A stretch of DNA of 64,000 nt from Escherichia coli O127:H6 str. E2348/69 (GTDB lineage: Bacteria > Pseudomonadota > Gammaproteobacteria > Enterobacterales > Enterobacteriaceae), in assembly GCF_000026545.1 (NCBI RefSeq), contig NC_011601.1; one strand, given 5' to 3'. The translations under genes were made by a program, and so were the position numbers. A model generated the notes under the pieces. The model was not told the origin of the DNA and made no database searches. It worked only from the letters and a program-made list of their open reading frames with translations. This document shows positions 43,053-43,067 of this stretch, one piece after another. The first letter of the stretch is position 1, and every line of letters begins with the position of its first letter.

Positions 43053-43067
43053 TGGCAAGAGTGGTGC
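43053..43067 (+). promoter_or_regulatory. candidate sigma-54 promoter upstream of ygfK
   Basis: TGGCAAGAGTGGTGC: TGGCA (-24) and TGC (-12) at canonical spacing, about 85 bp upstream of ygfK start. Confidence 0.3.

Follow-up and report, generated by a model that had tools for sequence, protein, structure and literature searches.

The sigma-54 promoter of ygfK in the uric-acid cluster of Escherichia coli E2348/69: its register, a candidate YgeV operator and CRP-type sites

The prpBCDE promoter of Escherichia coli and Salmonella is a sigma-54 promoter with PrpR as its activator, and it involves IHF and is subject to CRP-dependent catabolite repression. The ygfK promoter is alike in being a sigma-54 catabolic promoter for which a dedicated enhancer-binding protein and CRP control are proposed, but it differs in having no recognisable IHF site and in carrying two CRP-like sites where IHF usually sits. 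A second related system is found in the Clostridiales, where the sigma-54 enhancer-binding protein DioR is predicted to control homologues of ygeW-ygfK-ssnA-ygeY, dpaL and yqeB/yqeC (Nie 2019, BMC Genomics 20:565). The DioR regulon resembles the ygfK case in that a sigma-54 enhancer-binding protein is predicted over ygfK-ssnA homologues, whereas the phylum, the activator and the operator are all different.

The sigma-54 promoter of ygfK is itself already known from the literature. In K-12, a ChIP-seq peak lies upstream of the gene (site OS31, FAT 26; Bonocora 2015, PLoS Genet 11:e1005552, PMC4591121, Table 1), and the + strand motif that MEME assigned to it is identical to GTGGTGCGATTGTTGCT and puts the predicted start 62 nt from ygfK. 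An independent ChIP-chip region overlaps OS31 (S3 Table of that study), and the score of the site is conserved in Citrobacter, Yokenella, Raoultella and Brenneria (S5 Table). At most sigma-54 sites, OS31 included, transcription was not seen under the conditions of the study, and EcoCyc flags the ygfK site as 'predicted'. In microarrays, expression of ygfK increased 2.1-fold when sigma-54 was induced and decreased 2.4-fold when rpoN was deleted (Zhao 2010, NAR 38:1273, PMC2831329, Table 2). The same paper gives aaccTGGCAAGAGTGGTGCGATtgtt, at -97 to -80, as the predicted sigma-54 site, 9 bp further upstream than the motif that MEME found in the ChIP-seq data. The gene is missing from the list obtained by in-vitro genomic SELEX with the sigma-54 holoenzyme (Shimada 2021). 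Two registers are in print, and work that mutates or replaces the promoter depends on the correct -24/-12 register and start site. The present addition is modest: the register conflict is resolved, and a CRP architecture and a candidate operator for the orphan activator YgeV/IsrR are proposed.

In this study, the locus was analysed within a window of 64,000 nucleotides from E. coli O127:H6 str. E2348/69 (NC_011601.1), where the purine/uric-acid cluster has the order xdhABC-ygeV-ygeWXY-hyuA-...-mocA-ygfK-ssnA-ygfM-xdhD-...-ygfT-uacT. A spacer of 321 bp separates the end of mocA (42828) from the ygfK ATG (43150). YgfK is a flavin-dependent isoxanthine reductase and SsnA opens the ring, while XdhD-YgfM carries out the reduction of urate to isoxanthine. 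In gut Enterobacteria, the ygfK promoter governs the steps that first commit uric acid to anaerobic degradation, and this pathway is now being engineered into probiotics against hyperuricaemia. The features discussed below are collected in Table 1; upstream positions are counted from the predicted start at 43088, and orthologous loci were anchored on the promoter.

Table 1. Features of the ygfK region and of related regions in the window
Feature	Coordinates	Strand	Position, composition or basis
TATCA-N3-TGAKA sites, xdhA region	27372-27384, 27393-27405		
ygeV, intact, 592 aa, sigma-54 enhancer-binding protein	31277..33055	-	PAS, AAA+ Sigma54_activat, HTH_8
TATCA-N3-TGAKA sites, ygeV/ygeW region	33113-33125, 33211-33223		
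Palindrome TTATCATAATGATAA, core TATCA-N3-TGATA, candidate YgeV activator site	42879..42893	.	centred at -202
TATCA-N3-TGAKA site, ygfK region	42880-42892		
Conserved block TTTTGAGAAA	42905..42914	+	~-179; 20-genus alignment
Conserved block GAGTGATTTTAATTCTCATTT	42956..42976	+	~-122; invariant TGA and TTC-CA columns, 20-genus alignment
CRP-type site TGTGAGTTCATTCACA	42983..42998	.	centred at -97.5; TGTGA-N6-TCACA
Second CRP-like element TTCGAGCCGCCTCACA	43013..43028	.	centred at -67.5
Element of the earlier note, TGGCAAGAGTGGTGC; chance look-alike overlapping the real promoter	43053..43067	+	
Sigma-54 (-24/-12) promoter of ygfK, GTGGTGCGATTGTTGCT	43061..43077	+	PSSM, ChIP-seq motif identity, conservation
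Predicted ygfK transcription start	43087..43089 (~43088)	+	rule of Bonocora 2015; inferred
Small 5'-UTR hairpin ACCGG...CCGGT	43093..43113	+	predicted fold
ygfK Shine-Dalgarno AAGGAG	43138..43143	+	invariant, 20 genera
ygfK 5' fragment, codons 1 to ~228, cut by IS element	43150..43834	+	
ISEc13 (IS4 family), 1550 bp	43835..45384	-	ends CTGTCTCTT/AAGAGACAG
TATCA-N3-TGAKA site, ygfT/uacT region	59809-59821		

With high confidence, ygfK is assigned a classical sigma-54 promoter at GTGGTGCGATTGTTGCT with a start at about 43088, most likely activated by YgeV and accompanied by CRP-type sites, and the register upstream of it is taken as a chance look-alike. In GTGGTGCGATTGTTGCT, exactly 10 nt lie between the GG (43063-64) and the GC (43075-76), and the -12 element reads TTGCT. 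A consensus search matched TGGTGCGATTGTTGCT at 43062-43077 with two mismatches, and addition of the 5' G turns this match into GTGGTGCGATTGTTGCT. A position-specific scoring matrix (PSSM) was derived from Tables 1 and 2 of Bonocora 2015, using their 134 sigma-54 ChIP-seq motifs other than that of ygfK. With 14.2-14.5 bits, the promoter matches the median of these 134 bound sites and ranks 4 among the ~128,000 positions of the window. The window has six sites with 14 bits or more, where 2.5 are expected, and the probability that such a site falls by chance on the right strand no more than 150 nt from a given ATG is ~0.003. At -24, the TGGTG form is a recognised variant and occurs in 9 of the 134 bound sites. 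The start was placed by the rule of Bonocora 2015 (motif centre plus 19, which is 12 nt past the C of the -12 GC), yielding a 5' UTR of ~62 nt in K-12 and the window alike. The window thus carries the same 17-nt motif as OS31 of K-12, on the same strand and at the same distance of start from ATG.

Conservation was assessed in 80 ygfK loci from species-representative genomes, for each of which 300 nt upstream of the gene were scanned. A sigma-54 motif of 11.7-19.9 bits is present on the + strand in every one of the 54 gammaproteobacterial loci examined, which span the Enterobacterales, Aeromonas, Photobacterium/Vibrio and Shewanella, and the predicted start lies 47-144 nt from the ATG. The conserved pattern is YTGG(T/C)NYR-NNNG-TTGCT, in which GTTGCT hardly varies. 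In the controls, which included all 80 loci fetched, at least 12 bits were reached on the opposite strand in two loci and in coding sequence in none. The -24 element is TGGTG in, among others, Escherichia, Citrobacter and Klebsiella, and it drifts to the more canonical TGGCG, TGGCC or TGGCT in distant genera. The sigma-54 motif was absent from the spirochaete ygfK loci. The locus of Heliobacterium mobile (L081) has sigma-54 motifs of 19.7 and 19.2 bits, on both strands, ~45 nt before the ygfK homologue, and the 19.7-bit site is in keeping with the DioR regulon of Clostridiales, in which sigma-54 control of the same genes is predicted.

An earlier note on this DNA had suggested a possible sigma-54 promoter before ygfK, which stands, but had assigned it to TGGCAAGAGTGGTGC, and the functional motif lies 9 bp further downstream. 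The site of Zhao 2010 is exactly this element in exactly this register, so the misregistration has published precedent. The element was described accurately: the GG (43054-55) and GC (43066-67) of the + strand have the sigma-54 spacing behind a TGGCA, the -12 flank is poor, reading GGTGCG, and the quoted distance of about 85 bp is acceptable for an element that begins 97 bp and ends 83 bp before the ATG. Because the 9-bp difference is below the resolution of ChIP peaks, the choice of register rests on motif score and conservation. In the PSSM the upstream register, CTGGCAAGAGTGGTGCG, reaches 8.05-8.19 bits and rank 63 in the window, scoring below 132 of the 134 bound sites, and 67 window sites have at least 8 bits against 54.5 +/- 7.5 in Markov-1 simulations. 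On the ChIP-seq data MEME passed over this register and chose the other. Its TGGCA is kept solely in E. coli and Citrobacter sp. MGH106, that is, in 2 of the 54 loci, and only there is the score positive, the mean over the 54 loci being -18 bits. In an alignment of 20 genera, the columns under the upstream TGGCA are unconserved, whereas the downstream TGG, A and TTGC(T) are invariant. TGGCAAGAGTGGTGC resembles a promoter by chance and overlaps the real one: its 3' half coincides with the true -24 element, and its '-12' GTGC is part of the TGGTGC at -24 of GTGGTGCGATTGTTGCT. A functional upstream register with a start near 43079 is accordingly the least credible of the alternatives weighed here, close to negligible. 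As judged from the orthologous sequences, phylogenetic footprinting settles the conflict between Zhao 2010 and Bonocora 2015 for the ChIP-seq motif of 2015, and the site of Zhao 2010, not being conserved, is regarded as misregistered. A start at 43078-43082, as expected by the earlier note, misses the position of ~43088 predicted from the true motif. Its estimate that such a match occurs once or twice per window by chance was understated ~3- to 30-fold, since 4.25 matches are expected for the literal pattern and ~55 for sites of at least 8 bits. The pattern TGGCA-N7-TGC was observed 4 times against 4.25 +/- 2.0 expected, the 16-nt consensus with up to three mismatches 125 times against 123, and the bare GG-N10-GC, which is uninformative, 620 times against 608.

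It could also be that both registers are used in E. coli, as a strong conserved promoter and a weak lineage-specific one 9 bp upstream. GG-N10-GC is present in both registers, and a few sites bound in ChIP, such as that of ygfT, have scores down to 6 bits, so that weak binding in the upstream register is conceivable. Both registers are also invariant in six E. coli alleles, whose 3-7 spacer SNPs all fall outside them, so that this comparison does not discriminate between them; the K-12 spacer equals the window sequence across both. However, overlapping sites cannot hold two holoenzymes at once, the downstream site should be strongly preferred given the 6-bit difference in score, and the upstream register is unconserved past the closest relative, which together leave dual use very improbable. 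Rated lower still is a non-productive sigma-54 site, in which case ygfK mRNA would come from mocA read-through or an unrecognised sigma-70 promoter. For many sigma-54 sites of E. coli no output is known, a terminator after mocA was looked for and none was detected, and mocA-ygfK synteny is widespread, mocA being the conserved upstream neighbour in distant genera. Against this stand the position, orientation and enhancer-like architecture of the site, kept across four gammaproteobacterial orders, the rpoN-dependent changes in ygfK expression of Zhao 2010, and the membership of the operon in the YgeV iModulon. Likewise, the + strand of the mocA-ygfK spacer showed no sigma-70-like promoter; the sole consensus match was rejected, as it sits on the - strand.

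A productive sigma-54 promoter at GTGGTGCGATTGTTGCT needs an activator, and the control of ygfK by sigma-54 probably acts through YgeV, whose gene lies 10 kb upstream of the promoter. The YgeV iModulon of PRECISE-1K has ygfK, ssnA, ygfM and xdhD as members, and expression of ygfT has been reported to be lower in a ygeV mutant. Within 1.5-kb flanks of the ygfK loci of distant genera, no YgeV homologue was found. The literature searched held no description of a YgeV operator. Upstream of the ygfK promoter, the halves of the palindrome TTATCAtaaTGATAA at -202 are invariant in 20 Enterobacterales genera. The palindrome is present in 52 of the 54 loci, mostly at -202 or -182, two positions that are 20 bp or about two helical turns apart, compared with 2 of 23 control loci that are not sigma-54 loci. 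In the window, the four sigma-54 intergenic regions contain six TATCA-N3-TGAKA sites with at most one mismatch against 0.27 expected, and this number was reached in none of 2000 composition-preserving shuffles. The TATCA-N3-TGATA palindrome is therefore proposed as the probable binding site of YgeV. The suggestion of the earlier note that ygeV may control both xdhABC and the ygfK operon is plausible as co-regulation; the element and the coordinates attached to it did not hold. The ATAATGATAA of the -202 palindrome resembles a Fur box. A Fur box was rejected at this position, as the 5-3-5 halves TATCA/TGATA alone are conserved and the centre varies. Between the ygeW and ygfT/uacT regions, ATATCAATATGAGAA...TTACAG hardly differs.

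Between the palindrome and the promoter, two conserved blocks and two CRP-type sites were found. The TTCTCA of the block GAGTGATTTTAATTCTCATTT is the inverse of the TGAGAA in TTTTGAGAAA. The CRP core at -97.5, TGTGAgttcatTCACA, is a perfect TGTGA-N6-TCACA and is conserved in Enterobacterales. The element at -67.5, TTCGAgccgccTCACA, retains TT-GA-N6-TCAC in 48 of the 54 loci at -67.5 to -79.5, and it extends to Aeromonas, Photobacterium, Vibrio and Shewanella. The consensus for IHF is WATCAANNNNTTR, to which no convincing match was seen by eye between the enhancer and the ygfK promoter. The uric-acid pathway is repressed by glucose, and a Crp site has been noted in the ygeV-ygeW spacer. The targets of CRP in genomic SELEX include ygfK, ygeV<>ygeW and ygfT<>ygfU (Shimada 2011). 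The two CRP-type sites probably serve both catabolite control and a DNA bend that would bring the activator to the polymerase.

The following model could account for this arrangement. RNA polymerase with sigma-54 occupies 43061-43077 as a closed complex, as ChIP has shown for K-12, and an AAA+ activator, most likely YgeV, is needed at the ygfK promoter. YgeV bound to the palindrome at -202, possibly together with the two neighbouring conserved blocks, may remodel the closed complex, and CRP-cAMP at -97.5/-67.5 may provide catabolite control and bending. Taken further, the architecture may represent a rigid, phase-locked sigma-54 enhancer complex of ygfK that is conserved between E. coli and genera as distant as Aeromonas, Vibrio/Photobacterium and Shewanella, with TATCA-N3-TGAKA as the YgeV operator of xdhA, ygeW, ygfK and ygfT/uacT and with two CRP-type sites replacing IHF; for this wider proposal the chances are judged to be even. 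If it is true, uric-acid catabolism would be coupled to catabolite repression via the CRP-type sites that replace IHF.

The xdhA and ygeW promoters of the same cluster (OS29 and OS30 of Bonocora 2015) have -24/-12 elements at 27503-27519 and 33424-33440 with 15.6 and 14.2 bits, and the score of ygfK is comparable. Their upstream regions, like that of ygfK, contain TATCA-N3-TGAKA palindromes, and the ygeV-ygeW spacer shares with it a CRP-like site. On the other hand, the -24 form is TGGCG/TGGCA in xdhA/ygeW and TGGTG in ygfK, and the palindromes are located at -131/-152 for xdhA and at -234 and -332 in the ygeV-ygeW spacer, compared with -202 for ygfK. A weaker copy of the palindrome with two mismatches lies at -205 in the ygeV-ygeW spacer. 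A CRP core with one mismatch was observed at 33366-33381, corresponding to -77.5 of the ygeW promoter.

Some further sigma-54-like motifs were observed in the window. The ChIP-supported site of ygfT at 59629-59645 (- strand), TATGCCCATTTATTGCA, has 6.1 bits and is one base off the K-12 sequence. Upstream of uacT, CTGGCACTCCACGAGCA at 59931-59947 (+ strand) has a perfect -24 element, GAGCA at -12 and 5.5 bits. Inside yqeC, TGAGCACGAACCTTGCA at 41729-41745 on the - strand matches the intragenic site IS34 of Bonocora 2015, directed to yqeB, and downstream of this match there is a palindrome, TCTCACATTGAGA, at 41489-41501. Two motifs lie inside xdhD, at 52399-52415 (+ strand, 15.6 bits) and 51687-51703 (+ strand, 14.1 bits), and another at 14943-14959 (- strand, 14.8 bits). 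These last three had no match in the tables of Bonocora 2015 when approximate coordinates were used, and a search of the supplements with approximate coordinate strings gave no sigma-54 peaks of low stringency, either close to uacT or within xdhD.

No Rfam match was obtained in the spacer or the 5' UTR at E <= 1, and the fold of the ygfK UTR is overall not significant (z = 0.49). The stem of the small 5'-UTR hairpin is kept by compensatory changes in K. oxytoca (GTCGG/CCGGC), in Trabulsiella and in Hafnia (GTAGAGG/CCTCTGC).

The promoter of E2348/69 is without difference from OS31 of K-12, and all the conserved upstream blocks are intact, but the downstream ygfK is interrupted by ISEc13. The element is inserted after codon ~228 in the orientation opposite to ygfK, and it is flanked by a target duplication of 9 bp, CCACCATGC, at 43826-43834 and 45385-45393. 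In addition, the annotation of this EPEC strain gives xdhD (~49965-52835) as a pseudogene that contains an internal stop. Because of the ISEc13 insertion in ygfK and the internal stop in xdhD, the promoter probably drives a defunct operon in E2348/69, and the two lesions suggest decay of the reductive uric-acid pathway in this strain, its promoter still being intact. Among the best BLAST hits, E2348/69 is the sole carrier of ISEc13 in ygfK.
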